Both the position numbers and the translations under genes were made by a program. A model generated the notes under the pieces. The model was given only the letters and a program-made list of their open reading frames with translations, searched no databases and was not told the origin of the DNA. From a phage: a stretch of DNA of 40,621 nt. Where the stretch lies: the sequence record PX596819.2. One strand, written 5' to 3'. Positions 757-38,122 of this stretch are shown one piece after another (within the stretch, counting starts at the first letter, position 1; each line of letters begins with the position of its first letter).

Positions 757-779
757 CTTTCCTATAGTGATAGTTAAGT
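757..779 (-). promoter_or_regulatory. Phage RNAP promoter (phiOR-like), minus strand TTAACTATCACTATAGGAAAG
   Basis: Match to the 11-copy promoter consensus of this genome; located after gene 19 as phiOR is in T7. Confidence 0.6.
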
Positions 780-873
780 CCAAACTTCTTATAAAACAGT
801 AGGTTAGACTAGTAGTAACTATAGGTTACTAACTGCGTATTAATTCAGTTTTCGCCTATAGTTATTCATTCAG

Positions 874-2637
874 CTAGTGGAACGTAACGTATGACCCAAG
901 TCCAAGCTCATCGTCCGTATCGTGAGTTACCCTGACACCATTGTCCCAGAACTCAGTGTGGATGGACTCGAAGCCTTTCCGTGGGTTCTCCATCTGTTCC
1001 TCCAGCCACTCCTCAGTGACTTCACGTTCGCCTTTGTTGGCATCCTTAGCCATAGACTCAACGAAGAACTGTACACCGATAGCCAGCGCATCAAGTCGGT
1101 CATCGTGTGCCAAGGCTCCACGTTCACGAGATATACGTGTCATCTGGTAGAAGAGAGAGTAGATAGGGTTACGAACACCATCCTTATCAGAGGCTGACTG
1201 GTAGTCTTGGACGATAGCAGCAGCGTTAACGATAAGTCTGTGAGACCCCATGATAGGCTCCAGAACGTCACAGATTCGGAGTTCTTTCTGACCCTTACTC
1301 TTCACTTCAGTTACAGCAGCAGGATGGATACGGGCCGCTACAGGCTTGAATAACTCAAGGTACATACCATCACCGAAGTTACCCTCAATGACGTATTCGT
1401 TGACCTTCCACTTACGACCAATCTTAGCCAGAGCTTCCAGCGTAGAGTCTTCATAACCGCCACGCATACCACCAACTTCCATCGCGAAGATGTAGCCGTT
1501 GAGCTGGTACAATACAGCATAGCCAGTTTCATCCTTACCACGACCACTAGGGTCAATGACAAGAATCTTCTGGGTGTATGAACTGAAGGCAGAACCTACA
1601 GTCTGATACGTGTGGTATGAGTCACCCATGAGTCCAACGTTAGGAACGTCCTCACGCTTGTTCTGAGGGTTTGGCAGCCATTGGTAGACCATTGGGCTGG
1701 ACGCTGGGTCCAAGTCTGCTACGATAAGGTCACGGAGCTTCAGAGGGTACTTCTCGGCATCACTCAGGTTCGGGTTAAGCATGAACTGTAGAGCGAAGCC
1801 AGCTTTACCATAGGACAGCTCACGTTCCTTCAGGTCAATATCATCGAAGCGTACTTCATCAGTCGGACGCCAGTAGAAGGCCTCAGGGTCCTCTTCCAGC
1901 TCTGCTTGAAGCATAGGAGCCAGACGGTCGCCGTAAGACTGCCAGTCCTTCCTGTCGCGTGGATAACGAGCTGGCCAGATAGTAGTGGTGTACCCACGAC
2001 CTTCCAGCTCACGGTACAGGGTCATCTCGTTCTGAGGAGTACCCAGATAGATGATTGTACCTCCCGGCTTCAGGATAGCGTCGAACTCTTTCACAAGCTC
2101 TGATAGACGGTCTCGCGCAGCCTGAGTAGCAGAGTTGTTTGGAACCTCCACGTCATCGGCAATCAGGATGTCAGCACGACTACCAGTTAACTGACCAGTG
2201 ATACCAACTGACTTAACCGAAGGTGAGTGGTCTGGCTTGGCTGGCCCAACGTCGAAGCTAATAACCGCGTCCCTCTGTCCCTGCTTAGGCTTGAGTTCCT
2301 GAAGCTGAGGCATGAGGTCGATGATACGCTTGATGAAGATGGAGTTCGCATCGGCTCGTTCCTTTGAGGCCGACACAATCATGAACTTCAAGTCTGGGTT
2401 GTTCCATAGCTTCCAGACAACGAAACCACAGGTTAGAAACGACTTACCAATACCACGGAAAGCCTGAAGGATGAAGCGGCGATTATCCCCAGCAGCCAGC
2501 TTCTTACACATATCTATCTGGCAGCGGGTTGGAACCGGAAGGCTAAGAGCTTTCCAGAGAACGAAGATGAAGAACACGAAGTCTGCCTTCATACGGGCAG
2601 TCATTAGCGCCTGACGCGCCACTAAGTCTTTACTCAA
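874..2637 (-). CDS. gp19: Terminase large subunit (DNA maturase B, gp19)
   Basis: 587 aa, same size class as T7 gp19; last large gene of the map; ATPase and nuclease regions recognisable. Confidence 0.93.
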
Positions 2638-3083
2638 TGCGTCGCCTCCTTATCTTGCTGTAAGGCTCTCACAGTGTCCTGAAGTGCCTTAATCCACTTG
2701 TCTCCTTTCACTCCGATGGCGATAAGACGTTTAGCATCTCGTTCGTCAAGTTCGGCGTAACTAGCAATGACGCATCGACCGTCACTTTGTGTGGTTCCAC
2801 TCGTTGGTTTGACTCGGATGCGCAGCCGCTTATTGTCAGACTGAAGGTCAGCAATAATCCTATCAGTGCTGCCTTCCAGCGAGGACATTTCGTCCTGAAA
2901 CCGTTTTGACACTTTGTTGACTTCAGCTTGGACAGCAAGCCTTGTATCTTCCGATGCCTTAAGATTCGAGGTGTATTCTGCATTGACCTTAGCCTCCCAC
3001 TTATTGTTAGCGGTGTGGTAGCCACCAGCAAACATCACTGCTGCAAGTAACCACGGAGCCGCTCTCTTTAAAAATTCGAGCAT
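2634..3083 (-). CDS. gp18.5: i-spanin (Rz-like, gp18.5)
   Basis: 149 aa, N-terminal TM segment ([12 protein letters not shown]) then charged coiled-coil region; sits between small and large terminase genes as in T7. Confidence 0.75.
2708..2983 (-). CDS. gp18.7: o-spanin lipoprotein (Rz1-like, gp18.7) embedded out of frame in gp18.5
   Basis: Alternative frame inside the i-spanin gene encodes a lipobox LTISGC followed by ASESNQ; start taken at the internal Met of the 107-aa ORF, so the exact start is uncertain. Confidence 0.6.
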   Translation of the reverse strand: MQNTPRILRHRKIQGLLSKLKSTKCQNGFRTKCPRWKAALIGLLLTFSLTISGCASESNQRVEPHKVTVDASLLVTPNLTNEMLNVLSPSE

Positions 3084-3143
3084 AGTTGCCCTCCCGGTTT
3101 ATCAGATTTTCACGTAGAGTCTCCTCCACTAGTTAGTGTTAAC

Positions 3144-3185
3144 CATAAAGGCCACTACACATAGTAATGACCTTGAGTCTAACAC
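3144..3185 (-). other. Conserved hairpin motif (copy 1 of 3), candidate RNase III processing site (R18.5-like position)
   Basis: Motif cat(a/g)aaggccac-N13-15-atgaccttgagtcta recurs three times; the transcript folds as an ~11 bp stem (AAGGUCAU.. / ..GUGGCCUU) with a 5 nt loop. Confidence 0.4.
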
Positions 3186-3449
3186 TTATTGAACTCCATA
3201 CCCTGTGTCATTATCTTCCGTAGCGGAGAGCACCTTATCGTACTCTGCGTTCAGGGCCTCCATATCAGCCAGCGTCTTCTCGTCCACAGACACCTTACTT
3301 AACACAAAGTTGTGACGAGCCAGTAGCTTCTCAATGGCGTTGTAAAGCTGAGGCGAACGCTTAGAGTCATCCCGCAGGTCTTGCAGCATGAGTCTAGCAC
3401 GTTCAGTATCTAGCATTAAGAGGAACTTCTCTAAGTCCATCTGCGTCAT
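3186..3449 (-). CDS. gp18: Terminase small subunit (DNA maturase A, gp18)
   Basis: 87 aa; size and position as T7 gp18 between the holin and Rz genes. Confidence 0.75.
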   Translation of the reverse strand: MTQMDLEKFLLMLDTERARLMLQDLRDDSKRSPQLYNAIEKLLARHNFVLSKVSVDEKTLADMEALNAEYDKVLSATEDNDTGYGVQ

Positions 3450-3640
3450 GTTTTACCACCTCCTTTAATCGTTTTGTAGACTAGCACACCAATCTGGACA
3501 ACGGTGTACGCGATAGCTGCAACGTAGAACCATTCGTTCAGTGTAAGTCCGAAGAAGAACCGACTGGCACCATCAGCCGCAGCGGTCCCGACGATAGGAG
3601 AGGCTTTAAGGACCTCATTCTTGAAGTCTAACTCAATCAT
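3446..3640 (-). CDS. gp17.5: Holin (gp17.5-like)
   Basis: 64 aa with a hydrophobic TM segment (WFYVAAIAYTVVQIGVLVY) and charged C-terminus; follows the tail fibre gene as in T7. Confidence 0.75.
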   Translation of the reverse strand: MIELDFKNEVLKASPIVGTAAADGASRFFFGLTLNEWFYVAAIAYTVVQIGVLVYKTIKGGGKT

Positions 3641-3799
3641 AAAACCTCCAGTTTAAAGCGGGTCGTCCGTTACCCAAAGTTGTTACCATACGTTGGTCAG
3701 CGTGTAGTTAGCCTCTACCTCCACAACCTTCGATGGATTTTGATGATGAAATTCCATTCTGATACCATCAACCGCTTCTAAATAACGGGCCATTATTAT

Positions 3800-5995
3800 T
3801 TATACGATATTGTTCCCCATCGGTACCATGCTCATCGTAGGCGCTACGGAGTAGGATACAATAAGAGAATCACCGGGGGCGAGCATAACAAAGCCAGATG
3901 TCATACCTGTCACAGTTTGTGACCCACCGCGATTGAATTGGATACTCGTCACTGTGCCTCCAGTTGTAAGCACATTCTGGTACTCGCCTGTAGTATTTGT
4001 GTAGGTGAACGGGGAAGCCGTAACCGTGATAGGTTGGCGCAATTTTGTCGGGTACACATAAGCATTAGCGTCCAAGTCAAAAACATTACGGAAGCTACTA
4101 TTCGTGCCTGAATCGTAAATGCCTCCGCTGCCAGTGTCAAAATAGTTAACAGTCAGGTTTTCGATGTTCGCGGCAGAACAACCAGACTGCATTTCGATAC
4201 GCTCATGTAAGCCACCTACAATTCTCGCCCGGCGAGATGAACTGAGCAGAACGATGCTTTTGCCTGTATAACAGTTCTCCAGTACCGTATCTTGCCCACC
4301 ATCCAGCAGGTCTGCTGTCCCGTTAGCCTCAAAACCCATACCTACGAACTTATTCTGGCGTGACCCGCCTGAGGTAGTTATACCGTAGGTTCCGTTAGCC
4401 TCAGAAGTTCCGCCTATGAAGGTATTCAGGTCAGTGTCATTCAGGCGAATACCTGTACCCCCAACGCCTTCCATGATGGTATTAATAAACAGGTTTGCTG
4501 TTGACTTCAGGTTTCTGGACGGAGAAGTGCCAAGTACAAGACCGTAGTAAGGCTTGTTAGTAACTGGTTGCTCATTGATGGAATATGTTATGTTCTCGAA
4601 TACACTGGCAACGGTCCATAATAAACTCATAACCTTACCTGTTGTTGGGCTGGCCTCCCTTAAATTGATATTACGCATAGTTAGGTGTGAAGAATTCTCT
4701 ACATATAGAATGTGCTGGGTATTCGCATGACCTTCTATACCAATGTTTTCCACCACAACGTCGTAAACAGCTTGCAAACCATATTCTGAACCGTCGATCT
4801 TAAAAGCCTTCTCACCGGATGTACTTTTAAGGATAGTGTTATTTTTACCGTCCCCGAAAATATGAACACCTTTAACAGCAAAGTTTGGACCAGTCGCATA
4901 CGCATAAATACCAGCAGGGATGTATCCGCGTCGCTTATCTGTCTGGGCCACTACCGCGTTCCTGAATGCTGCCAGCTGTGCACTATTGTCAGTCACACCA
5001 TCACCGACGGCACCGAACCACAAGGCATTAATAGGGCCATCAAAGTCTCTCACCCAGCAACCGCTACCTGAAGGGTCTGATTCTCCGGTACCAGCCAAGA
5101 AAGCTGAGATGGAACTATACGGTACCGATGGGCTTATGATAGTACCACCATTGTGCGACGTTTTTGGCATGGTCGGTACGAAAATAAACTCGCCACCACC
5201 AGTAGGTTTTCCACCTGTTACTAATATATAATCAGAAGACCATGATTTTAGTTTTACCCTTGAGGTATCCCTCCCATATAAGCCATAAAATCCAGAAACG
5301 GAATCTAATTCCCCTATTAATGAATATCCAAGTTTGCTAGCAAGATGACTACGCAATGATGCATCACCAACACTAACCCACGCACCTACTCCAATCCCAC
5401 CGGAAGATTCAGGAGTTGAACCAGTAGGAACGTTCTTTGGAAGCGTACCATCCCAGCGGTAATAATCACTATCCTCCTCCCATAGCAGTACCTCGTTCCA
5501 TGTTGTAATGTTGAAGCCTTTCTCGAAGGAGCGACGGGTAATATAGCCAATTTTACCAGATGCCTTGATACTCTCAGCGATTCGTCGTGCTTCGTCCTCG
5601 CTATCCTTAGCGTTGCCAGCAGAGCTACCAGCGGCATCGGCATATTCCTTCGCTAAGTCAACCGTTTGGTCTCGACCTTCTTCTGCAATATGGATAGCCT
5701 GAAGCTCTGAATTGGTCAGGTCACTAGCTGTCAACACTGAGCCATTCCTGAAGTCTACCACTAAGTCAGTTCCAGTCTGACGGTGAATACGAACGATGTC
5801 GAAACCTGATTGGTCAACCAACATCTCAATCATCGTTGGATTAAAGAATCGGTAATCTCGGCCAACTTCCAGTACACGGTTCATGGTAGGGTTAGAGCTA
5901 TTCACCAGCGTAACAACAACAAACGTTCTGGCTAGGTAGTCGAACTCAATCCTGTAATGAGTGTTTCCTGAAGGGAATTGTGTAATAGTGGACAT
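3800..5995 (-). CDS. gp17: Tail fibre / tail spike (gp17) with T7-like N-terminal anchor and a distinct C-terminal beta-helix-like domain
   Basis: N-terminal ~150 aa (EFDYLARTFVVVTL, VDFRNGSVL, HIAEEGRD) resemble the T7 gp17 tail-attachment domain; the remainder is Gly/Asn/Thr-rich with repeated short strands, typical of tailspike beta-helices. Confidence 0.85.
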   Translation of the reverse strand: MSTITQFPSGNTHYRIEFDYLARTFVVVTLVNSSNPTMNRVLEVGRDYRFFNPTMIEMLVDQSGFDIVRIHRQTGTDLVVDFRNGSVLTASDLTNSELQAIHIAEEGRDQTVDLAKEYADAAGSSAGNAKDSEDEARRIAESIKASGKIGYITRRSFEKGFNITTWNEVLLWEEDSDYYRWDGTLPKNVPTGSTPESSGGIGVGAWVSVGDASLRSHLASKLGYSLIGELDSVSGFYGLYGRDTSRVKLKSWSSDYILVTGGKPTGGGEFIFVPTMPKTSHNGGTIISPSVPYSSISAFLAGTGESDPSGSGCWVRDFDGPINALWFGAVGDGVTDNSAQLAAFRNAVVAQTDKRRGYIPAGIYAYATGPNFAVKGVHIFGDGKNNTILKSTSGEKAFKIDGSEYGLQAVYDVVVENIGIEGHANTQHILYVENSSHLTMRNINLREASPTTGKVMSLLWTVASVFENITYSINEQPVTNKPYYGLVLGTSPSRNLKSTANLFINTIMEGVGGTGIRLNDTDLNTFIGGTSEANGTYGITTSGGSRQNKFVGMGFEANGTADLLDGGQDTVLENCYTGKSIVLLSSSRRARIVGGLHERIEMQSGCSAANIENLTVNYFDTGSGGIYDSGTNSSFRNVFDLDANAYVYPTKLRQPITVTASPFTYTNTTGEYQNVLTTGGTVTSIQFNRGGSQTVTGMTSGFVMLAPGDSLIVSYSVAPTMSMVPMGNNIV

Positions 5996-6043
5996 TATGC
6001 CTCCTGTTATGAATTAAAATGGAGACCTATGGTAGCGCCTCCA

Positions 6044-6066
6044 GTTTCCTATAGTGATAGTTTAGT
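6044..6066 (-). promoter_or_regulatory. Phage RNAP promoter (phi17-like)
   Basis: Minus strand ACTAAACTATCACTATAGGAAACTGGAGG just upstream of gene 17, overlapping the gene 16 stop. Confidence 0.65.
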
Positions 6067-13820: not shown

Positions 13821-13843
13821 AGTCCCTATAGTGATAGTTAAGG
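13821..13843 (-). promoter_or_regulatory. Phage RNAP promoter (phi13-like)
   Basis: Minus strand CCTTAACTATCACTATAGGGACTATAGG upstream of gene 13. Confidence 0.65.
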
Positions 13844-13867
13844 TAAATCTATAGGCCCTTCAATAAG

Positions 13868-16225
13868 TTAGACGGAACGAGCTTTCTTAGCGTATGACGC
13901 CTCCCAGCCACAACCAACGATGGACACTGGGGTAGGATAATCTGACTCTAAGGTTAGACTCGTGGTTAATGCGTTACCATTCATAGCGAAGCGATACTGA
14001 CCATCCCCAATGTTGGTAGTCCCGATGGTTTGCTGACCAAGGGTGTACCCGTTGAAGGTATTCACGAACTCCCGCTCACCGTTTCTGACAATGAGTCTCA
14101 GAGCGCCAGTGTCTTTGTAGTTGATCCAAGCCCGACGAAGCTGTAGACGACCAGTGTCTTCAGACTGAGTGCCACTATCATCTTCAATCTTAATCAGGAA
14201 CCGTGAGAACTTGTAGGACATCAGATAGGACCGTCCGATGAACACTGTGCGTCCTGACCAATCGCCGTTGAGGATAACAACAGTAGAGATACTGGTCAAG
14301 TCCCCAAGGTCCACATAAGCACCCTGACTGTCAATTAGATAGTACCGACCGGGAGACGGAGCGTTGCCGCCATAAGCAGCACCAATGTCAACCGTAGTCT
14401 TATAGGTGTCAGCATTATATGAGCCAATTGGAATTACCATAGACACCTTGGAGTCAACGTGTAGTCTATATGGCTCTGACGGTAAGTCAGTTGCCTCCTT
14501 GATGAACTTAAGGTGCTCAATGTCTACCCCTCCTTGGTGCTGACGAACGATGAACATGGTAGAGCCAATAGAAGCAGACGCCAGAATCTTATCATCTTTA
14601 GGGAACTCCCAGTGTGACCAAGAGGCTTGAAGCTGTACGCCGTCCTTAAACAAGAACTTGTAGATGTAGATACGGTTGTATGCACCTGTAGAGTTGACGC
14701 AGATGTAGTTCTCAGTCCCTGTACCTTGAATATCAAACACCCCGTTAGGGATGTAGGACAGTACGTGACCAGTTGTATCATCGGCATCCTTCACATCAGA
14801 CACATCAGCTACAGCGAAGTATCGCTTAATGCTGGTGAATGACCCACGAGGAGCTGAGAAGAAGACTGAGCGTCCTACAGCGAACGGTCTGGCATTATCA
14901 CCTAAGGCAAACTCTGAGCCTACATCAAGCTGGATAGACTTCGCAGTTAGGACCCCAGAGCTTGTCATCACGAACTGCACCTCGTCTGACCAAAGTAGTA
15001 GTTGCTCGCTAAACGGGACTGCATACTTAAGGATTGAGATTCTAGGGTGACTTACGGCTACGTCAATAGGGTCGTCATCACTAAGTGTCGCCACACTCTT
15101 AGGGAAGAACGCAAAGTAGCTGGCTGAACGACTCATGATTACGTTCTCTCCTGACAGGAACCCCAGCCTGTTCCTGTAGAAGAACACATCGTTAATCGTA
15201 GCATCCACGAAGCTAGGCATGGGGTTTGTGTCATCATTACCAGCACCACGCTTAGACCAGTCCAGAGTCTTGAACTCAAAGGAGCCGTCAGATTGTCTCA
15301 CCAGAGCGTGAGGCATTGTGGTGTTATCGAACCCAGTGACCACTCCCGGCTCTACTGTCTCCTTCCACGTCTTAGTGTTGGAGTCATACATCACGTAATA
15401 TTCATCTGCACTACTGTTGGTCTCACCTTGGATCTTAATGATATACCCATTAGGAGCTGCAAGAGGTAGTTTAGAGATTGTCTGCACAGTGTCTAGGACT
15501 GGGCTTATTAGCTGATTAGCGTAGCCATCCTCCGTCTCCACTGAGTTAATGTTGGTCCCTGAAGGGGCTGTGATTAGCAGGAAGCCAGACCCAAGGTCGA
15601 ACGTGAAGGTAGGATAGGCAGCAACAAGAAGGTCTCTCAGAGCTGCACCGATGGCCTGAGCATCCACCTTAGGTGGGTCATTCTCGGCATCATTACCTGC
15701 TGGCAACTTATGTGAAACCTTAACGCCTCCATTGATTCCAACCTTAAGGGTGCGACCATACTGTCCACCACGCAGGTTGATTAAAGCACGAGCTTTACGA
15801 TTATAACCAGAGTGTGACTTCTCGCTTCCACCTTTAACGACAACCTTACGGTTAACAACGAACGTATAGTCTGCCACGGTAACGACACGGATGTCATCTC
15901 GTGGGTTGGAGGACTTAACGTAGTCTACCGCACCGGAAACTGAGTATTGATTACCACTCAAGTCAACTACCTGAATGTTGGACCCGTTGAACACGATGTA
16001 ATACTGCTCCTGCTCATCACGGTTAATCAGGTGGAACTTAGGGTTGCTCCCAACGTCGATGTCAAGACGTCGCTTGAAGACTGTAGGCGGGCGCTTCTGG
16101 AGGCCATCACTCTCTGAGGACCAGCAGTTAACCTGTGACTCGCCTTGGTCTGAGAACCTCAGTATATCAGGCTGCTGGCTAATGCCCCCTTTAAGATTTT
16201 TTATACTCTGTGTGATAAGCGGCAT
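13868..16225 (-). CDS. gp12: Tail tubular protein B (gp12)
   Basis: 785 aa vs 794 in T7; synteny. Confidence 0.9.
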   Translation of the reverse strand: MPLITQSIKNLKGGISQQPDILRFSDQGESQVNCWSSESDGLQKRPPTVFKRRLDIDVGSNPKFHLINRDEQEQYYIVFNGSNIQVVDLSGNQYSVSGAVDYVKSSNPRDDIRVVTVADYTFVVNRKVVVKGGSEKSHSGYNRKARALINLRGGQYGRTLKVGINGGVKVSHKLPAGNDAENDPPKVDAQAIGAALRDLLVAAYPTFTFDLGSGFLLITAPSGTNINSVETEDGYANQLISPVLDTVQTISKLPLAAPNGYIIKIQGETNSSADEYYVMYDSNTKTWKETVEPGVVTGFDNTTMPHALVRQSDGSFEFKTLDWSKRGAGNDDTNPMPSFVDATINDVFFYRNRLGFLSGENVIMSRSASYFAFFPKSVATLSDDDPIDVAVSHPRISILKYAVPFSEQLLLWSDEVQFVMTSSGVLTAKSIQLDVGSEFALGDNARPFAVGRSVFFSAPRGSFTSIKRYFAVADVSDVKDADDTTGHVLSYIPNGVFDIQGTGTENYICVNSTGAYNRIYIYKFLFKDGVQLQASWSHWEFPKDDKILASASIGSTMFIVRQHQGGVDIEHLKFIKEATDLPSEPYRLHVDSKVSMVIPIGSYNADTYKTTVDIGAAYGGNAPSPGRYYLIDSQGAYVDLGDLTSISTVVILNGDWSGRTVFIGRSYLMSYKFSRFLIKIEDDSGTQSEDTGRLQLRRAWINYKDTGALRLIVRNGEREFVNTFNGYTLGQQTIGTTNIGDGQYRFAMNGNALTTSLTLESDYPTPVSIVGCGWEASYAKKARSV

Positions 16226-17040: not shown

Positions 17041-17086
17041 AGCAAAAAAAAAAACCCTCAAGCACCCGAAGGCACCCAAGGGGTTT
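17041..17086 (-). terminator. Tphi-like intrinsic terminator after the capsid gene
   Basis: Minus strand AACCCCTTGGGTGCC-TTCG-GGTGCTTGAGGG followed by T11: GC-rich stem, UUCG tetraloop and U-tract; same position as T7 Tphi. Confidence 0.7.
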
Positions 17087-17089: not shown

Positions 17090-18402
17090 TTAGTTTGTGA
17101 AAGATACGTTGAAGGAACGCACAGGCGAACCGTCATACAAAACAATCACTGGACCTTCCACGCCAGAGGTGGCCCTGAAGTAGAGACTGTTGGTTCTACG
17201 GGAGTAACTAACACCATCAGGCGTAGTAACATCAAGAAGCGACCAGTCGGTCACATCTGAAAGCTCCGGGAAGTCAACCTTCAAGCTGGTTCCCACCGTA
17301 GAACTATACGTCTCTAAGGTAGGACCCTCTGTAGAGAGGGCCTTAAGGGTCGTTAACCCCCTGCCGCTGCTGTGAAAACCAGTGCGCCAGCAGCTTCAGG
17401 ACGCAGGCCACCGTGTCCCATAGCGTACTTACCAACAATCAGGTCGCCCTGAGCATCGACGTCACGGTCACGTTCCAGTGCCAAATCACGCAGCTTAACA
17501 GTACCAACAGCAGAACGGTGAGAGAACAGGCCAACAACGTTGTCAAGAGCAACTTTAGTATCACCACCAGCAGTAGCTGGGAAGGCGTGCTTCTGACCAC
17601 TCGCAATAGTGATGCCGTCAGCGCCACGAGTTTCACCAGCACCACCCTGAGTCAAGTGTGGAACTTCAACAACAACGAAGCCCATCACGTTACGGATGTT
17701 ACCAGTCTCTGGGTCAATCAGCGCAGCATAGTTAGCAGCGTTAGGCATCAGAGCAGCGAGGATTGCAGAGTAGTTGTCAGGTGTGGTGTAGAAGTAACGG
17801 TCGCCAGCAGGAACGTAGTTGGCGGTCAGCTTCGCACGAGCAATAGTCAATTGACCAATGATTGCTTCACCTAGTTTAGCTGGAGTGTTGAGGTCAGCTT
17901 TCTTACCAACTTCCAGTACGGACGCAGTACCTAGACCAGCGATGTTCTCGTTGGATGCGGATGGTAGGTTGCACAGGATAGCCATTTCAGCCAGAACAGC
18001 ACCATCAGCAGCGATAGCCAGAGCTTCACCCAACTGGTTGGAATACTCACCAGCAACGTCATAGTGGTTCATCGCGTCTTCAATGTCGAAAATCATCACA
18101 TCGGCAGTCAGAAGACCATCAATGGTAATCACTTTCTCGGTATGTTTGATACCTTTGCGCTTATCGGACAGTCGCTCACCGGGAGCCAGATACACACCAG
18201 AGGTGCGACCCATGACCGGGAACTGAGCAGACTTGCCATTCTGAATGGTACGGACAATATGCTTGTCAGCCGTTACAGAGCGGCGAGTGAATGCGGTCAG
18301 GACTTCACCAGCAAATACCTTCAGGAACAACGCTAGAGCATCGGAACTGGATTTACCTTTACCTTGGTCTGTACCAATTTTCTGACCAGGAACGTTTGCC
18401 AT
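17090..18402 (-). CDS. gp10B: Minor capsid protein 10B, predicted -1 frameshift product of gene 10
   Basis: Slippery heptamer G GTT TTC (plus-strand gaaaacc at about 17374-17380) about 6 codons before the 10A stop; the -1 frame stays open to 17090, adding roughly 94 aa. The 68-aa track ORF 17090..17296 is in exactly that -1 frame. Confidence 0.5.
17353..18402 (-). CDS. gp10A: Major capsid protein 10A
   Basis: 349 aa vs 345 in T7; ends ..ALVFTAAAGG; strong promoter and leader upstream, terminator downstream. Confidence 0.93.
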   Translation of the reverse strand: MANVPGQKIGTDQGKGKSSSDALALFLKVFAGEVLTAFTRRSVTADKHIVRTIQNGKSAQFPVMGRTSGVYLAPGERLSDKRKGIKHTEKVITIDGLLTADVMIFDIEDAMNHYDVAGEYSNQLGEALAIAADGAVLAEMAILCNLPSASNENIAGLGTASVLEVGKKADLNTPAKLGEAIIGQLTIARAKLTANYVPAGDRYFYTTPDNYSAILAALMPNAANYAALIDPETGNIRNVMGFVVVEVPHLTQGGAGETRGADGITIASGQKHAFPATAGGDTKVALDNVVGLFSHRSAVGTVKLRDLALERDRDVDAQGDLIVGKYAMGHGGLRPEAAGALVFTAAAGG

Positions 18403-18505
18403 ATGATAATTCTCCTATTCAATTGAAAGATAAAGTTTATTACTTACTGTACGCCCAATCCGTATGGACTGAAGTAATATGGGAAACCTTGAGTCTTTCT
18501 CTTGG

Positions 18506-18528
18506 TCTCCCTATAGTGATAGTTTAGT
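18506..18528 (-). promoter_or_regulatory. Phage RNAP promoter (phi10-like), ACTAAACTATCACTATAGGGAGA
   Basis: Identical to the T7 promoter from -8 to +6 (TCACTATAGGGAGA) and different at -12 to -9; upstream of the capsid gene. Confidence 0.7.
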
Positions 18529-19504: not shown

Positions 19505-19527
19505 TGTTCCTATAGTGATAGTTTAGG
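19505..19527 (-). promoter_or_regulatory. Phage RNAP promoter (phi9-like)
   Basis: Consensus match upstream of gene 9. Confidence 0.65.
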
Positions 19528-22281: not shown

Positions 22282-22342
22282 CTTGAATCTCCTCTTTAAG
22301 TTAAGACTAAAGTCTATCTTATAGTCATATCTTAGGTCCTAA

Positions 22343-22365
22343 AGTCCCTATAGTGATAGTTTAGT
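22343..22365 (-). promoter_or_regulatory. Phage RNAP promoter (phi6.5-like)
   Basis: Consensus match (minus strand ACTAAACTATCACTATAGGGACTTTAGG). Confidence 0.65.
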
Positions 22366-28687: not shown

Positions 28688-28734
28688 TCACTCCTTAATC
28701 ACAAATGCGAACAAAGGGACAGGACTCATGGTCC

Positions 28735-28757
28735 CATCCCTAAAGTGATAGTTTAGG
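28735..28757 (-). promoter_or_regulatory. Phage RNAP promoter variant (phi4-like) with CACTTTAGGG in place of CACTATAGGG
   Basis: Minus strand CCTAAACTATCACTTTAGGGATGGGAC upstream of gene 4; A-to-T change at -2. Confidence 0.5.
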
Positions 28758-28968: not shown

Positions 28969-28992
28969 TGAGTTATTCTCCTTTAGAGTTTA

Positions 28993-29463: not shown

Positions 29464-29495
29464 CTCTTGTGGTTCCTGATTCGACTTATGGTTGT

Positions 29496-30737: not shown

Positions 30738-31168
30738 GTTTCTCTCCTTAGTATCTTACCTATTGTTGGCTGAGACACTCCGTAGATTGTAGCGAGTTGT
30801 CGCTGAGTAAGGCTCGAAGACCTAATTTCCTTGACTTTAGTGTCAGTAAGTTTGGACATACCGCACTTCTCTCCCGGAACATGAGGAGGGTTTACACCGC
30901 GCCCCTTGTTACGCATGTCCTGAAGGTTATCCAATTGGGTCCCTACAGTAAGATGCTCAGGGTTACAACACAGCGGAGTATCACAGGTGTGTAACAGAAC
31001 GCCATTAGGTTCTTCACCTGTAATCAGCTCGTAGGCTACGCGATGTGCAAGCATGGTTTTTCCATTGTGCCTAATCTGACCGTAGCCTTTGTTGTTAACG
31101 CAGCCAGTGAAAAGCCAGCAGCTACCTGAAACCACAAGTCGCTGCTTAAGGCTTTCTACTGTAGCCAT
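30719..31168 (-). CDS. HNH endonuclease with C-terminal HTH (free-standing)
   Basis: CWLFTG..NKGYGQI..AHRVAYELITGEEPNGVLLHTCDTPLCCNPEHL; C-terminal LTQRQLATIYGVSQPTIGKI helix-turn-helix. Confidence 0.8.
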   Translation of the reverse strand: MATVESLKQRLVVSGSCWLFTGCVNNKGYGQIRHNGKTMLAHRVAYELITGEEPNGVLLHTCDTPLCCNPEHLTVGTQLDNLQDMRNKGRGVNPPHVPGEKCGMSKLTDTKVKEIRSSSLTQRQLATIYGVSQPTIGKILRRETWRHVA

Positions 31169-31866: not shown

Positions 31867-31906
31867 TGGTGTAAATCTCCTAATTTAAAAGTTACGAACT
31901 GGACGT

Positions 31907-31929
31907 CTGTCCTACAGTGATAGTTTAGG
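31907..31929 (-). promoter_or_regulatory. Phage RNAP promoter variant (phi2.5-like) with CACTGTAGG
   Basis: Minus strand CCTAAACTATCACTGTAGGACAGACG upstream of gene 2.5. Confidence 0.5.
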
Positions 31930-32161
31930 TCTCAGGACGAATCCGTCCGACCACAAACCCAGCGTCCTCATACTCTTGGGACTTCAGGGTAGCCTCTTCA
32001 AGAGACTTTGCGTACACCGGAACCTCGAATGACTGAACGCGACCCTCAAGCTCAACGATGTATTTCTTTTCTACGTCAGTCATAGACCGCGCTCCTTCCA
32101 TTGGTTGTATAACGTAATGTAGTCCGGGTTGAGAGTCTTCTCGTACATCTCCCGGCACCAC
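31925..32161 (-). CDS. gp2: Host RNA polymerase inhibitor (Gp2-like)
   Basis: C-terminal part [14 protein letters not shown]...[13 protein letters not shown] resembles T7 Gp2 (SFEVPIYAETLDEA...AGFEVTRVRP); the true start is probably an internal Met. Confidence 0.6.
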
Positions 32162-32170
32162 TCACTCGGT

Positions 32171-32434
32171 TTAAGCATATCGGTTCACCATTACACAGTC
32201 GTCAGAATGGTCATACTCCTCTACCCTAATAATCATACTAGGAGTCTTCATATAAGCAAACGGTAGGAGGTCATAGTCATAATACTCACTGTGTCCTAAT
32301 GAGAACGCTAACATACCCTTACGCAGCGCCTTGTATGATCGGTAAAAACTGAGCGCTCTACGCTTCACCCCTACAGCTTTAAGTTCTTCATGCGTCATAA
32401 CACTTGTCCTTATGTTTCTCGTAAAGTTCACCAT
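32171..32434 (-). CDS. Hypothetical protein (gene 1.8 position)
   Basis: 87 aa ORF between the 1.7-like gene and gene 2; synteny only. Confidence 0.4.
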   Translation of the reverse strand: MVNFTRNIRTSVMTHEELKAVGVKRRALSFYRSYKALRKGMLAFSLGHSEYYDYDLLPFAYMKTPSMIIRVEEYDHSDDCVMVNRYA

Positions 32435-32714
32435 AGAACTCAGCTTTCGCCATGTCCTTCTCCATAGTAGCTAGCTCTGACTTCTTGCCAGCCCGGAGTC
32501 GATACTTCAGGACGTTCCCCATGCAGAACCCACGAAACTCGCTGACAGTCATAGACCGAGCGATAATCTCAATGGACTCAACACCATCAAAGACCTGATA
32601 GTGGGACGGCTTGCGTACACCGTCATCAGCTACAGCAACTGGATGAGGTGTTGAGACGCCGCATCGATAGGCATCATAACGTTCATAGCACGTCTTGCTT
32701 TCGTAGTGTGACAT
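32388..32714 (-). CDS. gp1.7-like protein (DUF3310-type; putative nucleotide kinase)
   Basis: 108 aa with a GNVLKYRLRAGKK segment that I associate with the DUF3310 / T7 gp1.7 family; position between 1.6 and 2. Family assignment is uncertain. Confidence 0.35.
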   Translation of the reverse strand: MSHYESKTCYERYDAYRCGVSTPHPVAVADDGVRKPSHYQVFDGVESIEIIARSMTVSEFRGFCMGNVLKYRLRAGKKSELATMEKDMAKAEFYGELYEKHKDKCYDA

Positions 32715-32968
32715 TAGAATACCTCCTTCACGAACTCAACGAACAGGCGAACGCGAGGCCACTTAGTGTAGACCACAGGTACGTTGGTCTCACGCTTCTG
32801 GCGAGCCTCTTCGGCTTTGCTCGGAGTAATCAGAGCGAATACTGTAGGTGATAACTTAATGGCCTTCCCGAAGTAGCCCAGCTTCTCGTTGCGCTTAATG
32901 CAAGCGAACGGGTTGTTGGAAAGGTGGAAGGTACTGGAATAACGGTTGAACATTAAGTTCTTAGACAT
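32714..32968 (-). CDS. Hypothetical protein (gene 1.6 position)
   Basis: 84 aa, directly downstream of a phage promoter. Confidence 0.45.
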   Translation of the reverse strand: MSKNLMFNRYSSTFHLSNNPFACIKRNEKLGYFGKAIKLSPTVFALITPSKAEEARQKRETNVPVVYTKWPRVRLFVEFVKEVF

Positions 32969-32992
32969 AGCGTCTCCTTAGGTTGTTGGTTG

Positions 32993-33015
32993 TAGTCCTA
33001 TAGTGATAGCTTAGG
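32993..33015 (-). promoter_or_regulatory. Phage RNAP promoter (phi1.6-like)
   Basis: Minus strand CCCTAAGCTATCACTATAGGACTACAACC; G at -12. Confidence 0.55.
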
Positions 33016-33033
33016 GTCTATATGGTGGCCCAG

Positions 33034-33070
33034 ACGCAAAGAAACCCAGCAGTCAGAAGACCACTGGGTT
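33034..33070 (-). terminator. Intrinsic terminator, candidate early terminator (TE-like) for host RNAP
   Basis: Minus strand ACCCAGUGGUC-UUCU-GACUGCUGGGU stem-loop followed by UUCUUUG; lies after the ligase/HNH block and just before the phi1.6 promoter. Confidence 0.5.
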
Positions 33071-33074
33071 GACG

Positions 33075-33536
33075 TTATAATGAATCCCTTAAGGCTACTG
33101 CCTCGGCTATGGTATCGAACGTACCGTATGACTTACGCTTTATCCGCAGTTGCCAGCGACCAGTTGATTTCTGGTATTGAACGTATTTCTCTCCAGATTG
33201 GCAGTGACTACGGGTTGGAACGTTAGTTAGGTTCACCGCCTGAGTCACACACCTGAGGTTCTCAATCCTGTTATCCGAAGGGTCCCGGTTGATATGGTCA
33301 ATCACCATCCCTTCTGGTATAGGACCGTGGGTTAGTTCCCAGACTACTCGGTGGGCCAGCAGTTGGCCCTTTGTCGTACTTAGAATCCAGTACCCATCCT
33401 TTCGTCTATAACCAAGATGTCTACCGTTTAGGTTTGAGACTCCAGAGGGAGCCGCCCTGTCTGCTTTAAATCTTGACCGTAGGGTCGTCCTCAGTTCCAC
33501 GCCACTGGTCGAACGAGGGATGCCGTAGTAAGCCAC
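33075..33536 (-). CDS. HNH endonuclease with AP2-like C-terminal domain (free-standing)
   Basis: AHRVVWELTHGPIPEGMVIDHINRDPSDNRIENLRCVT; C-terminus GRWQLRIKRKSYGTFDTIAEA. The start overlaps the ligase 3' end by about 70 nt, so the true start may be downstream. Confidence 0.75.
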   Translation of the reverse strand: MAYYGIPRSTSGVELRTTLRSRFKADRAAPSGVSNLNGRHLGYRRKDGYWILSTTKGQLLAHRVVWELTHGPIPEGMVIDHINRDPSDNRIENLRCVTQAVNLTNVPTRSHCQSGEKYVQYQKSTGRWQLRIKRKSYGTFDTIAEAVALRDSL

Positions 33537-34515
33537 TTGGTGTCTCCTCCATGTAGGTAATCTGGCAGGCCCAGCCTTTATAATAATCAGGGTCTGACTT
33601 TACGTTCTCTGTGAACTCGGACATTAGGGCGCGACTAATATTAGTTGCGGAGACCTCCATCCCGTTCTCAAGCATAACGTCAAAGCCTATTACCAGTCCT
33701 TCGTTGGTAAGACCTTCTGTTCCCCATATAGGCCGTACAACGTGACCGTCTGCCTCTTCGCTTGGTTTCATCTTGAACATACCTGACTTCTTTCCACGCT
33801 TCCAGCGTCCCAGTGGGTCTTTAACCACCAGACCCTCATGGCCCTCTTCTCTCTTCTTCTCATACAAGTCAGTAAGCTCGTCTAAGCTAAACACTGTATG
33901 ACTCTCAGATAATACCCAGTCGATTTCCGGGAAGTATTTCTGGAGGAGAGGGACGATAGCTTCGGCCTTCAGGCGCGTGACGCTATGGATAGGACCTTCA
34001 GCTTTCTGGTCGAGGATGACGTTGAGGTCTATGATACCGTAGACGATTACCTTGATATGTTCCGGCTTAAGGTTGAACAGCTCCTTGCGGGACTTGCGGT
34101 CTGTTGGCGTCCCACCCACTGCGAACTCGTGGTTCTTGTGGTCTCGGTACTTCGTGCGGATAAGACCTGAGGATGTGTTGAAGTCTACACCCTTGACCAT
34201 CACCTCGCCATCAATCATCAGGCCAGAGACCTCGTGTCCTGCTTGCTTCAGGAACCAGCGCCAGTCATCTGCTCGTGTTACTACACCTTCGTGCTGACGT
34301 GAGGCTGGGTTGCTTAAGTGACTCAATGCTGGAAGCTCTTTAGACTCACGGCTCAACCATTGAGTCTCACCAGTAGGGAAGACCGGAATATTCAACCGGA
34401 CACCATCGTACTTCACTTCAGCTTCCAGCGACCCAGCAGCTTCCAAAGCCTTCTTAACGCCAGACTCAGAGTAATCTACAGCGCGGTGCGGGTTAGTTTT
34501 GATAGTCGTTGTCAT
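33466..34515 (-). CDS. gp1.3: ATP-dependent DNA ligase (gp1.3)
   Basis: 349 aa; IKTNP start, adenylation motif VKYDGVR, GHEGLVVKDP, GWACQITYMEETP, all resembling T7 ligase. Confidence 0.93.
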   Translation of the reverse strand: MTTTIKTNPHRAVDYSESGVKKALEAAGSLEAEVKYDGVRLNIPVFPTGETQWLSRESKELPALSHLSNPASRQHEGVVTRADDWRWFLKQAGHEVSGLMIDGEVMVKGVDFNTSSGLIRTKYRDHKNHEFAVGGTPTDRKSRKELFNLKPEHIKVIVYGIIDLNVILDQKAEGPIHSVTRLKAEAIVPLLQKYFPEIDWVLSESHTVFSLDELTDLYEKKREEGHEGLVVKDPLGRWKRGKKSGMFKMKPSEEADGHVVRPIWGTEGLTNEGLVIGFDVMLENGMEVSATNISRALMSEFTENVKSDPDYYKGWACQITYMEETPSGLLRHPSFDQWRGTEDDPTVKI

Positions 34516-34777
34516 TATGATTTCTCCATGTGTCTAGTTGGTCAGCGAGACCGTTAAGGAAGTCGGTTGCAGTGTTGTACAGTACGTCTTCATCGTGGTG
34601 TGCGAATGTCTCAAGCGCGAAGATGTTACCAGCTCGGTCCTCAACCCTGAGTTTCATGCACTCTTGTCGAGACGCAGGGTCTTGAAACTCCTGAGAAATG
34701 ACAGCTAAGTCTAACTGATAGAGCCTGTTACACGCTGCTTTGAGAGCGTTGAGGTTGCCACTATAAAGTCGGCCCAT
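34493..34777 (-). CDS. gp1.2: gp1.2-like protein (dGTPase inhibitor homolog)
   Basis: Starts MGRLYSGNLNALKAACNRLYQLDLAVI and contains HHDEDVLYN, closely resembling T7 gp1.2. Confidence 0.75.
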   Translation of the reverse strand: MGRLYSGNLNALKAACNRLYQLDLAVISQEFQDPASRQECMKLRVEDRAGNIFALETFAHHDEDVLYNTATDFLNGLADQLDTWRNHNDNDYQN

Positions 34778-34781
34778 AGCG

Positions 34782-35009
34782 TTATGCTCCTACTAAGTAT
34801 TTTTCTCGGTTTACCAGAGAGTCTTTACCTTCAGCGTTACGGAAAGCACCCTTGACACCACCGCCGCGCTTGGTCTTGTTCAGCTTGCGGCCCTTCGGAA
34901 TGTAATATTCAGTCTTCTGACGTTCACGGATGCGCTCGAAGTTGATAGTGTTCTGATACATGTGGTTAAATCTCCAGTAGTTTACGTTAGGATTAATCAT
35001 GAAGGCCAC
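34782..35009 (-). CDS. gp1.1: gp1.1-like small basic protein
   Basis: Contains KGRKLNKTKR as in T7 gp1.1; the track ORF starts at GTG and the true start is probably an internal ATG. Confidence 0.5.
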   Translation of the reverse strand: MAFMINPNVNYWRFNHMYQNTINFERIRERQKTEYYIPKGRKLNKTKRGGGVKGAFRNAEGKDSLVNREKYLVGA

Positions 35010-35035
35010 GACTTTGAGTCATGACCTTGAGTCTA
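34998..35035 (-). other. Conserved hairpin motif (copy 3 of 3) at the 5' end of the phi1.1 transcript, candidate RNase III site (R1.1-like)
   Basis: Minus strand UAGACUCAAGGUCAUGACUCAAAGUCGUGGCCUUCAUG: 11 bp stem with two G-U pairs and a 5 nt loop, immediately downstream of the promoter. Confidence 0.45.
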
Positions 35036-35055
35036 ATCCTATAGTGATAGTTTAG
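35033..35055 (-). promoter_or_regulatory. Phage RNAP promoter (phi1.1-like)
   Basis: Minus strand CCCTAAACTATCACTATAGGATTAGACTC; first phage promoter downstream of gene 1, as in T7. Confidence 0.65.
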
Positions 35056-35131
35056 GGTTAACCTCTTCTGCGTTGGACTAAAATGAATACTGCGAGTGTT
35101 CCCAGCCACAAGGCCAGCAACTGTAGGTCTG

Positions 35132-35362
35132 TCATTTGGTTGCCTCTTCCCGTAGGGCCTTCTCGTGTGACCACTGTATTACCTGAATCAGCTCCTTCTG
35201 GCTGATACATTTGGCCTTAGCCGTTCCAGTCGGTACCATAGTCACCTTGACCAGACCTTTACCCGCCACTGTGGTTACGGTAACTACCTTGTTGCCACCA
35301 GATACGTTTGATACACGGTGTGCGAATTGCATGTTGTCTCTCCTGTTGTTAAGCGAATGCAA
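35132..35362 (-). CDS. Hypothetical small protein between gene 1 and the phi1.1 promoter (gene 1.05-like position)
   Basis: 76 aa ORF with TTG start overlapping the RNAP stop by 14 nt; an internal ATG (MQFAHRV..) is also possible. Weak. Confidence 0.3.
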   Translation of the reverse strand: MHSLNNRRDNMQFAHRVSNVSGGNKVVTVTTVAGKGLVKVTMVPTGTAKAKCISQKELIQVIQWSHEKALREEATK

Positions 35363-38030
35363 AGTCTGAAGACAAGATGTCTTCGATATTCAGTTTACCT
35401 TTCTTCGGAAGCTCAGGCAACTTGTCGCGCTGGCTCTCGTGAAGCTGGTACTCGAACTGCTCGTAGAAGTCGAGCAGCACATCGTTGTCGCGGTAGGTCT
35501 CGACCATCGTCTCACGGACACCACGGAACAGATACTCAGCATCAGCAGGAATGGTCCCGAAGCTATCGTGAATAACTGCGAATGACATCACACCATACTT
35601 GCGGTGAGTGTGGACTACAGTCTTGCGGAGGTGGCTGCCATCTTGTGAGTGAACGAAGTTCGGGCTAATGCCTGACTCCTGCTTGTGCTTGTCCAGCTCT
35701 TTCTTCGTGCCTTTATTGACTGTAGGTTGAAGGTTAAATGACCCTAAGAACATCAGGTTCAGACGCGTGGTATCCTTCTTGCGGTATTCCTGCCAGACCG
35801 GGAAACCATCAGGTGTTACCCAGTGTACCGGAAGGCAAGGCTTCAGGATTTCACCAGTTTTCTTGTCCTTCACCTCAGCAGCCAGCAGCTTGGCAGCACC
35901 TTGAAGCCACTTCATCGCGTCTACCGCAGCAACCACGGTCACACTCACAGCCTCCCAGATCATCTTAGCCATGAAGCGAGACGCTTGTCTTGGTTCAGTG
36001 AACATAGCGCCAGACCCTGAGTCAATCGCGGGCATCACGATGTCCTCGTACACTTGGTCTGCGAAGCCATACTCTTTCGACCCGTAGGCCAGAGTCATGA
36101 CCGAACGCTTAGTGACCTTGCGTGACATGCCGTAGGTCAGCCACTGACGGGCCAGCTCTCGTGTCCCCAGCTTGAGACGTTCGGTAATCTCACCAGTTTT
36201 CTTGTCCTCGTGAGTCACCATCTCGTTGTCCGTACCGTTAACCAGCAGGACTTTAAGCTCCTCCTCAATGCGGTCAGACACAATGCGGTAGATGTCTTGG
36301 ACCTTACCGGATGGAGTTAGGTTTACTGCATGTCCACCGATGTGGTCACGAAGCATCGCGCTGAAGTGCTGAATACCAGAGCAGGACCCGTCGAACGCTA
36401 TTGGCAGCGAACATGAGTAAGACAGTCCGTGGTGCATTACGCCAGCATACTCGAAGCAGAACGCTAGGAAGCAGAACGGAGAGTCTAACTTGCCCCACCA
36501 CTCAATGCTATCCATCGGTGCTTTGGCAGCAGCCATGATGTTGTCGTGGTTGTCTTCCACCCACTTGATGCGCTCCTCGAAGGTGACTTTATCGACACCC
36601 GCACAGTTTGCACCGTGGACCTTCAGCCATTTGAAACCATCAGCACCAATAGGCTTACCGACTGCCAGAGTCAGTAGACCCTTCTGCATGTCGTTACCCT
36701 GAGGGTTGAACATCGGCACAGCGTAGACGCGACCGCGCCAGTCCATGTTGTACGGGAACCAGATGGCCTTGAACTGAGAGAACTTGTTCGCTTGGTTGAC
36801 GATAAAGCTCAATGATAATCTGCGTGACTGTCTGGCCTTCTCGCGGCGATAGATGCCAGCAGCAGCCTTCTTCCACGCCTTGAGGTCCTCTTCAGTCTCT
36901 CCCACATAGTCTTCAGGCTTCAGTGGTTCCATCTGAGGGATGTCGTCAATAGGCGTGTTGTTCAGCTTCTCGACCATGTTCACTACGTCCAGCACCTTCT
37001 TGTTCACTTTCCAAGGTGTATTCTGGATGATGTTCACAGCGTCATAGACTTCAGGCATGTACACGTCTTCGTAACGTGCTACCGCAGACTTAGACCCTAA
37101 GCGAATCAATGGTAACGGTCTGCGACCTTTGGCCCAGTAACCACCGCCTACGACACCCGTCCACGGCTTAGGTGGAACGACGCACGGTTGGTAGACTGGC
37201 GCGATACCTGCAAGGCTGAAGCCACGTTGCGCCATCTTCTTGACCCAGAAGTCTGACAGGTGGACCATCTCAACATCAGCCGCTGCATTGCCAGCACCAT
37301 AACGCTTAAGCTCGACCAGTTGTGTAGACTGTATGACAATCTCAAGCATCTTGATGCCGACGTGTACCGCTTCTGTAGGACTCCAAGTACCCCACGCATC
37401 TTCCAGTTGGCCTTGCTCCAGCATGGAGGTCTCAACCGCTTGCATGTAGGCTTTCTTGTAGGATACCCCTGCTCGCTTGTTCAGGTTCTCAGCAATCGCC
37501 TTCTTGAAGTGCTCCTGCTCCTTATCACGGATGCGGCCGAAGCGGATTTCATCTTCCAGTGTGCGACCTATCGCGGATGCCATAGGAGTTATCGGAATGC
37601 CTTCAGGCTTGACCAGCTTGCTGAGGATGACTTTCAGTATGATGATCGCAGCAGACTCCGCAGAGATTAGCAGAGAGCGGTCTTTTACAGCCTTCTCGTC
37701 AGTGCTCAGCATGGTAAACGCTACGCTTGGACGCGAGGTCGATGACTTACCGTCCGGGCCTTCATGCCACTCACGGAAAGCCTTAGCGATGGTCGGAACC
37801 AGCGTTTGCATCAAAGGTTTGGCGACCTGATTGTCTGCCAGTTCCCCTCGCTCGGTCTGGCGCTCAAGGTTCTTGATGAAACGTCGCTCGCCTTCAGTGT
37901 ATGCCTCATGCTCAAGCTGAAGCTGTTTGACTGCAAGGTCTTGCCCGTAGTGGTTGGCCAGCAGGTTAAACGGCTCAATGGCGTTCGACACATCAGAGAA
38001 GTCGTGTTTGTCAATAGAGATGACGCTCAT
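35349..38030 (-). CDS. gp1: Single-subunit DNA-directed RNA polymerase (T7 gp1-like)
   Basis: 893 aa vs 883 in T7; ends ..DFAFA like T7 RNAP; AAGGA 8 nt upstream of the ATG. Confidence 0.97.
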   Translation of the reverse strand: MSVISIDKHDFSDVSNAIEPFNLLANHYGQDLAVKQLQLEHEAYTEGERRFIKNLERQTERGELADNQVAKPLMQTLVPTIAKAFREWHEGPDGKSSTSRPSVAFTMLSTDEKAVKDRSLLISAESAAIIILKVILSKLVKPEGIPITPMASAIGRTLEDEIRFGRIRDKEQEHFKKAIAENLNKRAGVSYKKAYMQAVETSMLEQGQLEDAWGTWSPTEAVHVGIKMLEIVIQSTQLVELKRYGAGNAAADVEMVHLSDFWVKKMAQRGFSLAGIAPVYQPCVVPPKPWTGVVGGGYWAKGRRPLPLIRLGSKSAVARYEDVYMPEVYDAVNIIQNTPWKVNKKVLDVVNMVEKLNNTPIDDIPQMEPLKPEDYVGETEEDLKAWKKAAAGIYRREKARQSRRLSLSFIVNQANKFSQFKAIWFPYNMDWRGRVYAVPMFNPQGNDMQKGLLTLAVGKPIGADGFKWLKVHGANCAGVDKVTFEERIKWVEDNHDNIMAAAKAPMDSIEWWGKLDSPFCFLAFCFEYAGVMHHGLSYSCSLPIAFDGSCSGIQHFSAMLRDHIGGHAVNLTPSGKVQDIYRIVSDRIEEELKVLLVNGTDNEMVTHEDKKTGEITERLKLGTRELARQWLTYGMSRKVTKRSVMTLAYGSKEYGFADQVYEDIVMPAIDSGSGAMFTEPRQASRFMAKMIWEAVSVTVVAAVDAMKWLQGAAKLLAAEVKDKKTGEILKPCLPVHWVTPDGFPVWQEYRKKDTTRLNLMFLGSFNLQPTVNKGTKKELDKHKQESGISPNFVHSQDGSHLRKTVVHTHRKYGVMSFAVIHDSFGTIPADAEYLFRGVRETMVETYRDNDVLLDFYEQFEYQLHESQRDKLPELPKKGKLNIEDILSSDFAFA

Positions 38031-38099
38031 ACTTAAAGTCCTTGTTATTAGTCTTTCACTTAAAGTCTCTTTGTTCTTTCACTTGGAGTCTTAGACCTT

Positions 38100-38122
38100 G
38101 AGTCCTATAGTGATAGTTAAGT
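38100..38122 (-). promoter_or_regulatory. Phage-RNAP-type promoter directly upstream of the RNAP gene
   Basis: Minus strand CTTAACTATCACTATAGGACTCAAGGTC, a full match to the consensus core, placed between the last early ORF and gene 1 and oriented into gene 1. Confidence 0.55.

Follow-up and report, generated by a model that had tools for sequence, protein, structure and literature searches.

The eleven-copy promoter family of the phage genome PX596819.2 and its K1F-type RNA polymerase

The phage genome PX596819.2 (40,621 nucleotides; this whole stretch of DNA is called the window here) carries a short element repeated eleven times on its minus strand, which resembles the promoters of phage T7 around the transcription start and departs from them at -12 to -9. 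Does this phage have an RNA polymerase (RNAP) with a specificity of its own, as proposed in the initial annotation, and is the pair formed by promoter and polymerase a new one? The eleven repeats are almost certainly the middle and late promoters of a K1F-like Kayfunavirus, recognised by the single-subunit RNAP encoded in its own gene 1, which is of the K1F type. The specificity of this promoter and polymerase is not new: exactly the same residues and bases have already been described for the K1F/Kayfunavirus class.

Eleven promoters and the polymerase of gene 1

We searched both strands of the window for AACTATCACTATAGG with up to 2 mismatches, taking the chance level from 100 shuffles. Exactly 11 matches were found (positions 761, 6048, 13825, 18510, 19509, 22347, 28739, 31911, 32997, 35038, and 38104), all of them on the minus strand and none with more than one mismatch. 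By chance, 0.09 matches would be expected; the shuffled maximum was 1 and 0 of the 100 shuffles reached 11. The search recovers the eleven-copy minus-strand family of the initial annotation, whose coordinates mark position +6 of each 23-mer and are exact, with the exception of 35033, which is off by one base. Eight of the 11 sites match AACTATCACTATAGG exactly, and the other three have one mismatch each: CACTTTAGG at 28739, CACTGTAGG at 31911, and AGCTAT at 32997, this last variant being absent from the initial annotation. When both strands were scanned with a position-weight matrix derived from the 11 sites, only the same sites were recovered, with scores of 32 to 37, plus one degenerate relic (score 15.7).

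The sites were named by their position relative to the open reading frames (ORFs) and by synteny with the phages K1F and CLB_P1. The conserved block extends from -16 to +2, with the consensus CTWAACTATCACTATAGG and little or no variation among the 11 sites; at its upstream end C-16 and T-15 are invariant and are followed by W-14 and A-13. Positions -12 to -8 read ACTAT in 10 sites and GCTAT in phi1.6, as is also the case in K1F, and the initial reading of -12 to -9 as ACTA instead of the CGAC of T7 was correct. It had also extended the identity with T7 from -8 to +6 and included a shared (G)AGA, which holds only for the upstream part. From -8 to +2 the sequence is that of the T7 consensus in 9 of the 11 sites, with phi2.5 and phi4 varying at -3. 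At +3, 7 sites have A and 4 have G, +4 to +6 are variable, and the GGGAGA start is found only in the copy at 18510 (phi10); therefore, the T7 identity ends at +2. The labels phi4-like and phi2.5-like given to two of the sites agree with the next downstream genes, which are those of the primase/helicase and SSB, respectively.

As in other members of the T7 group, the conserved element spans about 23 bp from -17 to +6, contains the core CACTATAGG, has G at +1, and occurs in multiple copies that are co-directional with the genes. The sites are placed either between genes or at the 3' end of the preceding ORF, and the next ORF starts 21 to 262 nt downstream. The resemblance to T7 includes this 23-bp architecture, the segment from -8 to +2 (TCACTATAGG), the start at G, the phi10 copy with GGGAGA and a 5' stem, and a Tphi terminator after gene 10. 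On the other hand, the promoters of T7 differ from those of the window at -17 to -15 and -12 to -9, and T7 has 17 of them against 11 here. No match to the T7 consensus promoter was found anywhere in the window with up to 3 mismatches, and all cross-scores between the window and T7 promoter matrices are negative in both directions. A K11-like promoter differs from that of the window at six positions.

Gene 1 (35349..38030, minus strand) encodes a single-subunit T7-like RNAP of 893 aa with the Pfam domains RNA_pol (1.6e-106) and RPOL_N (6.2e-15). The protein is 97.8% identical to the RNAP of K1F, 97.4% to that of CLB_P1, 94.7% to that of Ro45lw, 85.6% to that of EcpYZU01, and 63.7% to those of T7 and T3 each. 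RNAPs with 95 to 99% identity were found in 167 phage records, and the only close solved structures, judged by the best PDB matches, are those of T7 RNAP. The catalytic residues D537, K631, Y639, and D812 are invariant in the alignments with T7 and T3, which places the enzyme in the T7 group.

The specificity-loop codons occupy 35691..35786 (minus strand), where window residues 749-780 (YRKKDTTRLNLMFLGSFNLQPTVNKGTKKELD) correspond to T7 residues 739-770 (YKKPIQTRLNLMFLGQFRLQPTINTNKDSEID). Inspection of this loop, proposed initially as the way to check for a distinct specificity, revealed that it is not identical to that of T7: 13 of the 32 positions differ, including R756N, Q754S, and I761V, and R746, N748, and Q758 are kept. 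Over all 32 residues it is identical to the loop of K1F, and also to that of CLB_P1. The residues N748, S754, N756, Q758, and V761 (T7 numbering), together with ACTAT at -12 to -8, are those of the K1F class. They fit neither the T7 class, with CGACT at -12 to -8 and R756, nor the T3 class, with ACCCT at the same positions and D748. In the T7 promoter complex, base-specific contacts are made by R746, N748, R756, and Q758 (PMC11880802), and the loss of Arg756 would fit the replacement of C:G by A:T at -9.

A second difference from T7, which was not noticed initially, involves positions -17 to -14 and the N-terminal loop that recognises AT-rich DNA. The codons of this loop are at 37719..37760 (minus strand; window residues 91-104, GPDGKSSTSRPSVA), and its counterpart in T7 is KAKRGKRPT, at about residues 93-101. 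The window has GKSSTSRPS, without the basic KRGKR motif of T7, and the change parallels that of the promoter from TAATA in T7 to MCTWA in the window at -17 to -13.

By analogy with T7, the beta-hairpin of the specificity loop would read the major groove at about -12 to -7 and the N-terminal loop the minor groove at about -17 to -13, while the TATA segment (-4 to -1) would melt and the RNA would start at the G of GGR. In the window, ACTAT takes the place of the T7 sequence CGACT at -12 to -8, and correspondingly N is found at position 756, along with S754 and V761, where T7 has the Arg that recognises G-9. Further upstream, MCTWA replaces TAATA, and the N-terminal loop does not have the basic residues of T7. 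We infer these residue-to-base contacts of the window RNAP from its T7 counterpart. Initiation by this enzyme at the window sites is likewise predicted, the in vitro case being that of the 95%-identical Ro45lw enzyme acting on ACTTAACTATCACTATAGGGA.

The K1F class in related phages and in published work

The window holds the genome of a K1F-like podophage of the genus Kayfunavirus (Studiervirinae), complete or almost so, in reverse orientation and with every long ORF on the minus strand. In megablast comparisons with phage genomes, its first 25 kb have 93 to 94% nucleotide identity to CLB_P1, ST31, K1F, and many others over 86 to 91% of their length (93.9% across 88% for K1F), and the remaining genome is about 92 to 94% identical to its relatives over about 80%. 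It is a close, collinear relative of K1F, as would be expected for a member of the K1F/Kayfunavirus class.

In K1F (DQ111067, AM084414), 11 matches to the promoter 15-mer of the window were found in syntenic positions and in the same gene order, 8 of them exact; the record AM084414 has no promoter annotation. The same 11 promoters appear in the same order in CLB_P1, and in Ro45lw they are joined by a twelfth, ahead of the DNA polymerase gene; the GenBank record of Ro45lw annotates the equivalent sites as promoters. K1F shares the A-12G and A-3G variants with the window, but its phi4 has two substitutions (T-4C and A-3T) where the window has one (A-3T), and a few N-terminal residues of its RNAP are different, such as GKLSTS instead of GKSSTS in the AT-rich loop region. 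The Ro45lw RNAP has the same N748/S754/N756/Q758/V761 combination, with two conservative differences in the loop (M750L and a distal T to S), and its phi1 carries T-2A. When the sites of the window, K1F, CLB_P1, and Ro45lw are aligned at +1, the identity is 98.3% across -17 to +3 and 75 to 81% in the 40-nt flanks, and therefore the promoter sites are under selection. Beyond these genomes, the exact 18-mer recurs many times in about 25 viral contigs of IMG/VR, nearly all of them with 39 to 40 kb.

The distribution of the variants is also shared. The full consensus is kept in 8 promoters, namely phi1, phi1.1, and the six late ones (phi6.5, phi9, phi10, phi13, phi17, and phiOR), and single substitutions are found in the three promoters of the DNA-metabolism region (phi1.6, phi2.5, and phi4). 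A-12G at phi1.6 and A-3G at phi2.5 are identical in the window, K1F, CLB_P1, and Ro45lw, and phi4 is sub-consensus in all four genomes, the relatives having CACCTTAGG and CACCTAAGG. Among the annotated T7 promoters, those of DNA metabolism (class II) deviate from the consensus and the late ones (class III) conform to it. The variants of the window follow this pattern, and by analogy the three would be weaker and the late promoters stronger.

The Enterobacter phage EcpYZU01 (MK033136) is also classified as Kayfunavirus. Its RNAP shares the D748/R756 pair with T3, and its N-terminal loop is basic (AARGRPQ). The 11 promoters of this phage have AACCCTCACTATAGG (AACACT in two of them), with AT-rich bases upstream. 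The comparison of this phage with the window is that of a specificity switch inside Kayfunavirus, with N748/N756 accompanying ACTAT and D748/R756 accompanying ACCCT. Therefore, loop residues and promoter bases switch together, as expected for a recognition pair, and within the genus the N-terminal loop and the bases at -17 to -14 also vary together.

This pairing has also been reached by engineering. T7 RNAP with 632S/754S/756N/761V, used with ACTAT at -12 to -8, corresponds to the K1F domain graft of Temme et al. (PMC11880802 Table 2, NAR 2025), and the resulting T7(K1F) enzyme is active on its own promoter and orthogonal to T7, T3, and N4-subfamily variants (Temme et al. 2012, PMC3458549). 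T7(K1F) and its promoter PK1F are similar to the window pair in the loop residues 754S, 756N, and 761V and in ACTAT at -12 to -8. However, T7(K1F) is a chimera that keeps the T7 backbone and the upstream TAATA, whereas the native window pair has MCTWA and a different N-terminal loop. The K1F loop was reused as the K1FR sigma fragment (Segall-Shapiro 2014, PMC4299498), and the native K1F RNAP with PK1F constitutes an orthogonal expression/mutator system in Halomonas and E. coli (PMC12218169). The purified Ro45lw RNAP starts in vitro at a G at +1, with the minimal promoter ACTTAACTATCACTATAGGGA (Takatsuki et al., J Biol Chem 2025, PMC12272871), which equals phi13 of the window except at -17. In another Kayfunavirus, repeats with CTWAACTATCACTATAGG were reported as promoters in a 2026 genome paper (PMC13298934).

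Weighing the alternatives

Some points weigh against the interpretation of the repeats as promoters of a K1F-type enzyme with its own specificity. N748 is kept even with -11 and -10 being unlike T7, and therefore a simple correspondence of one residue to one base leaves part of the switch unexplained. The orthogonality of the grafted K1F loop was judged "limited", with a score of 8 in Table 2 of PMC11880802, and therefore some cross-talk with T7-type promoters is possible; T7 RNAP was also possibly cross-reactive with the promoters tested for Ro45lw (PMC12272871). For this particular genome, all evidence comes from the sequence, and the weakness attributed to phi1.6, phi2.5, and phi4 is drawn from their conservation and from the analogy with T7.

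It could then be supposed that the specificity is essentially that of T7, the differences at -12 to -9 being tolerated drift that confers no functional orthogonality. The identity with T7 from -8 to +2, the conservation of three of the four base-reading residues (R746, N748, and Q758), and the limited orthogonality of the graft (PMC11880802) are consistent with this. Nevertheless, we consider it very improbable, since the residue with which T7 reads -9 is lost through R756N, and the four divergent bases show little or no variation across the 11 sites of four genomes, which is not expected of drift. Moreover, loop residues and bases change jointly in EcpYZU01, and the K1F graft is orthogonal to the T7 promoter in vivo (PMC3458549). 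The own specificity relative to T7 and T3 proposed in the initial annotation is thus well founded, given the 13 differences in the loop and the published orthogonality of the same loop with ACTAT to both (PMC3458549, PMC11880802).

That the window represents a previously unknown promoter specificity class, with a new orthogonal enzyme, as the initial annotation implied, is extremely unlikely. The bases at -12 to -9 do differ from those of T7, T3, and the K11-like promoter, and no identical genome record exists, the best full-length matches being at about 93 to 94%. However, the same 11 syntenic 15-mer sites are present in K1F, sequenced in 2005, with the same variants at phi1.6 and phi2.5 and one extra substitution at phi4. 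The loop is that of K1F, the pair is published and in use, and the spread of the 18-mer in IMG/VR and of nearly identical RNAPs in phage records, both described above, counts against novelty as well.

Some T7 promoters double as replication origins, and the T3 record has its primary origin annotated immediately after phi1.05. Along with the extra upstream motif common to phi1, phi13, and phiOR and the RNase III-like hairpins that follow some promoters (see below), this could suggest that the repeats are mainly replication origins, recombination or packaging signals, or RNA-processing sites instead of promoters. The strict co-orientation of the sites with the genes, their placement ahead of gene blocks, the core CACTATAGG of T7-group promoters, and the initiation by the Ro45lw enzyme at such a sequence in vitro (PMC12272871) make this reading practically negligible, and any origin role would add to the promoter function and not replace it.

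The promoter map and neighbouring elements

All promoters described here are on the minus strand. The first of them, phi1 (38100..38122, +1 at 38105; ACTTAACTATCACTATAGGACTC), stands 75 nt upstream of the start of the RNAP gene, with its K1F counterpart at 2491. In the T7 and T3 records, an E. coli promoter is annotated directly upstream of gene 1, whereas the window has a phage promoter there, which is also present in K1F, CLB_P1, Ro45lw (T-2A), and EcpYZU01 (A-3G). Since phi1 has the full consensus and is so close to gene 1, the enzyme would transcribe its own gene in a direct positive feedback. We found no discussion of this layout in the literature accessible to our search. No RNase III-like hairpin fold was detected in the phi1 leader (z = 0.04).

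The promoters phi1, phi13, and phiOR are the three that have T at -14, and they also share the motif CTAACYNNYTG at -45 to -35 (38140-38150, 13861-13871, and 797-807, respectively, minus strand). This motif has 4 occurrences in the window against 1.6 expected, a marginal enrichment. The sharing may come from descent by duplication, or the motif may have a second function, for example in replication initiation. There is an outside chance that the phi1 feedback loop, or the combination of T-14 with this motif in phi1, phi13, and phiOR, is an uncharacterised regulatory feature of Kayfunavirus.

Downstream of the RNAP gene, phi1.1 (35034..35056, +1 at 35039; CCTAAACTATCACTATAGGATTA) has an equivalent annotated as "predicted promoter" in Ro45lw, and its transcript opens with an RNase III-like hairpin. 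This hairpin, which has an internal loop, belongs to a repeat with three copies on the minus strand, at 34986-35036 (dG -22.4, z -5.3), 3132-3182 (dG -23.4, z -3.3), and 38842-38892 (weaker). They sit where T7 and T3 have the RNase III sites R1.1 and R18.5 and an early-region site, and the copy at 34986-35036 begins at +3 of the phi1.1 transcript, matching the annotation of T3. An Rfam scan of the whole window returned no family above threshold, which is expected because Rfam has no models for promoters and RNase III sites.

The three sub-consensus promoters follow: phi1.6 (32993..33015, +1 at 32998; A-12G, CCTAAGCTATCACTATAGGACTA), phi2.5 (31907..31929, +1 at 31912; A-3G, CCTAAACTATCACTGTAGGACAG), and phi4 (28735..28757, +1 at 28740; A-3T, CCTAAACTATCACTTTAGGGATG), the first two being annotated under the same names in Ro45lw. 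Next comes phi6.5 (22343..22365, +1 at 22348; ACTAAACTATCACTATAGGGACT). The degenerate relic recovered by the matrix (ACCTAAGATATGACTATAAGA; 22317-22337, minus strand; score 15.7) is found from 29 nt downstream of the phi6.5 start and is kept in K1F, CLB_P1, and Ro45lw. No significant RNA fold was found in the region of the phi6.5 leader and relic.

Among the remaining late promoters, phi9 (19505..19527, +1 at 19510; CCTAAACTATCACTATAGGAACA) overlaps the 3' end of the gene 8 ORF. The promoter phi10 (18506..18528, +1 at 18511; ACTAAACTATCACTATAGGGAGA) is the sole one with a T7-like GGGAGA start, and its leader (18400-18511, minus strand) contains a T7-like 5' stem, GGGAGACC...GGUUUCCC (dG -27.9, z -3.1). 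Between genes 10 and 11, a Tphi-like intrinsic terminator (17045..17082, minus strand) is composed of a 12-bp stem followed by T10, and a terminator is annotated at the equivalent place in the Ro45lw record. Further on, phi13 (13821..13843, +1 at 13826; CCTTAACTATCACTATAGGGACT) is unlike the Ro45lw promoter tested in vitro only at -17. The promoter phi17 (6044..6066, +1 at 6049; ACTAAACTATCACTATAGGAAAC) overlaps the 3' end of the gene 16 ORF and is annotated as phi17 in Ro45lw, and the phiOR-like promoter (757..779, +1 at 762; ACTTAACTATCACTATAGGAAAG) comes after the large terminase gene.

Other features of the genome were also observed. The gene 17 product (3800-5995, minus strand) has 731 aa, while in K1F it is an endosialidase tail spike of 1064 aa; therefore, this phage has a different receptor-binding module, and its host capsule or O-antigen range is probably different from that of K1F. 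A comparison of the window ends (1-200 with 40400-40621) found no direct terminal repeat of at least 40 nt. The Ro45lw record has terminal repeats of 190 bp, and the assembly of the window probably keeps one copy of the terminal repeat. In the early region, the best sigma-70-like site (40217-40246, minus strand) is located upstream of gene 0.3, with TTGACA and TAGTAT separated by 18 nt (10 of 12 matches), and is a candidate early promoter for the host polymerase.

Beyond the correct annotation of this genome, the significance of the finding is small, since the K1F-type pair is already documented in genome records, in biochemistry through the Ro45lw RNAP, and in synthetic biology. It does confirm that a reading based on sequence only can recover the promoter set of a phage and correctly predict a switch in polymerase specificity. 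As by-products, it provides the exact positions of the promoters in this genome and a clear case, within one genus, of natural covariation between polymerase and promoter.

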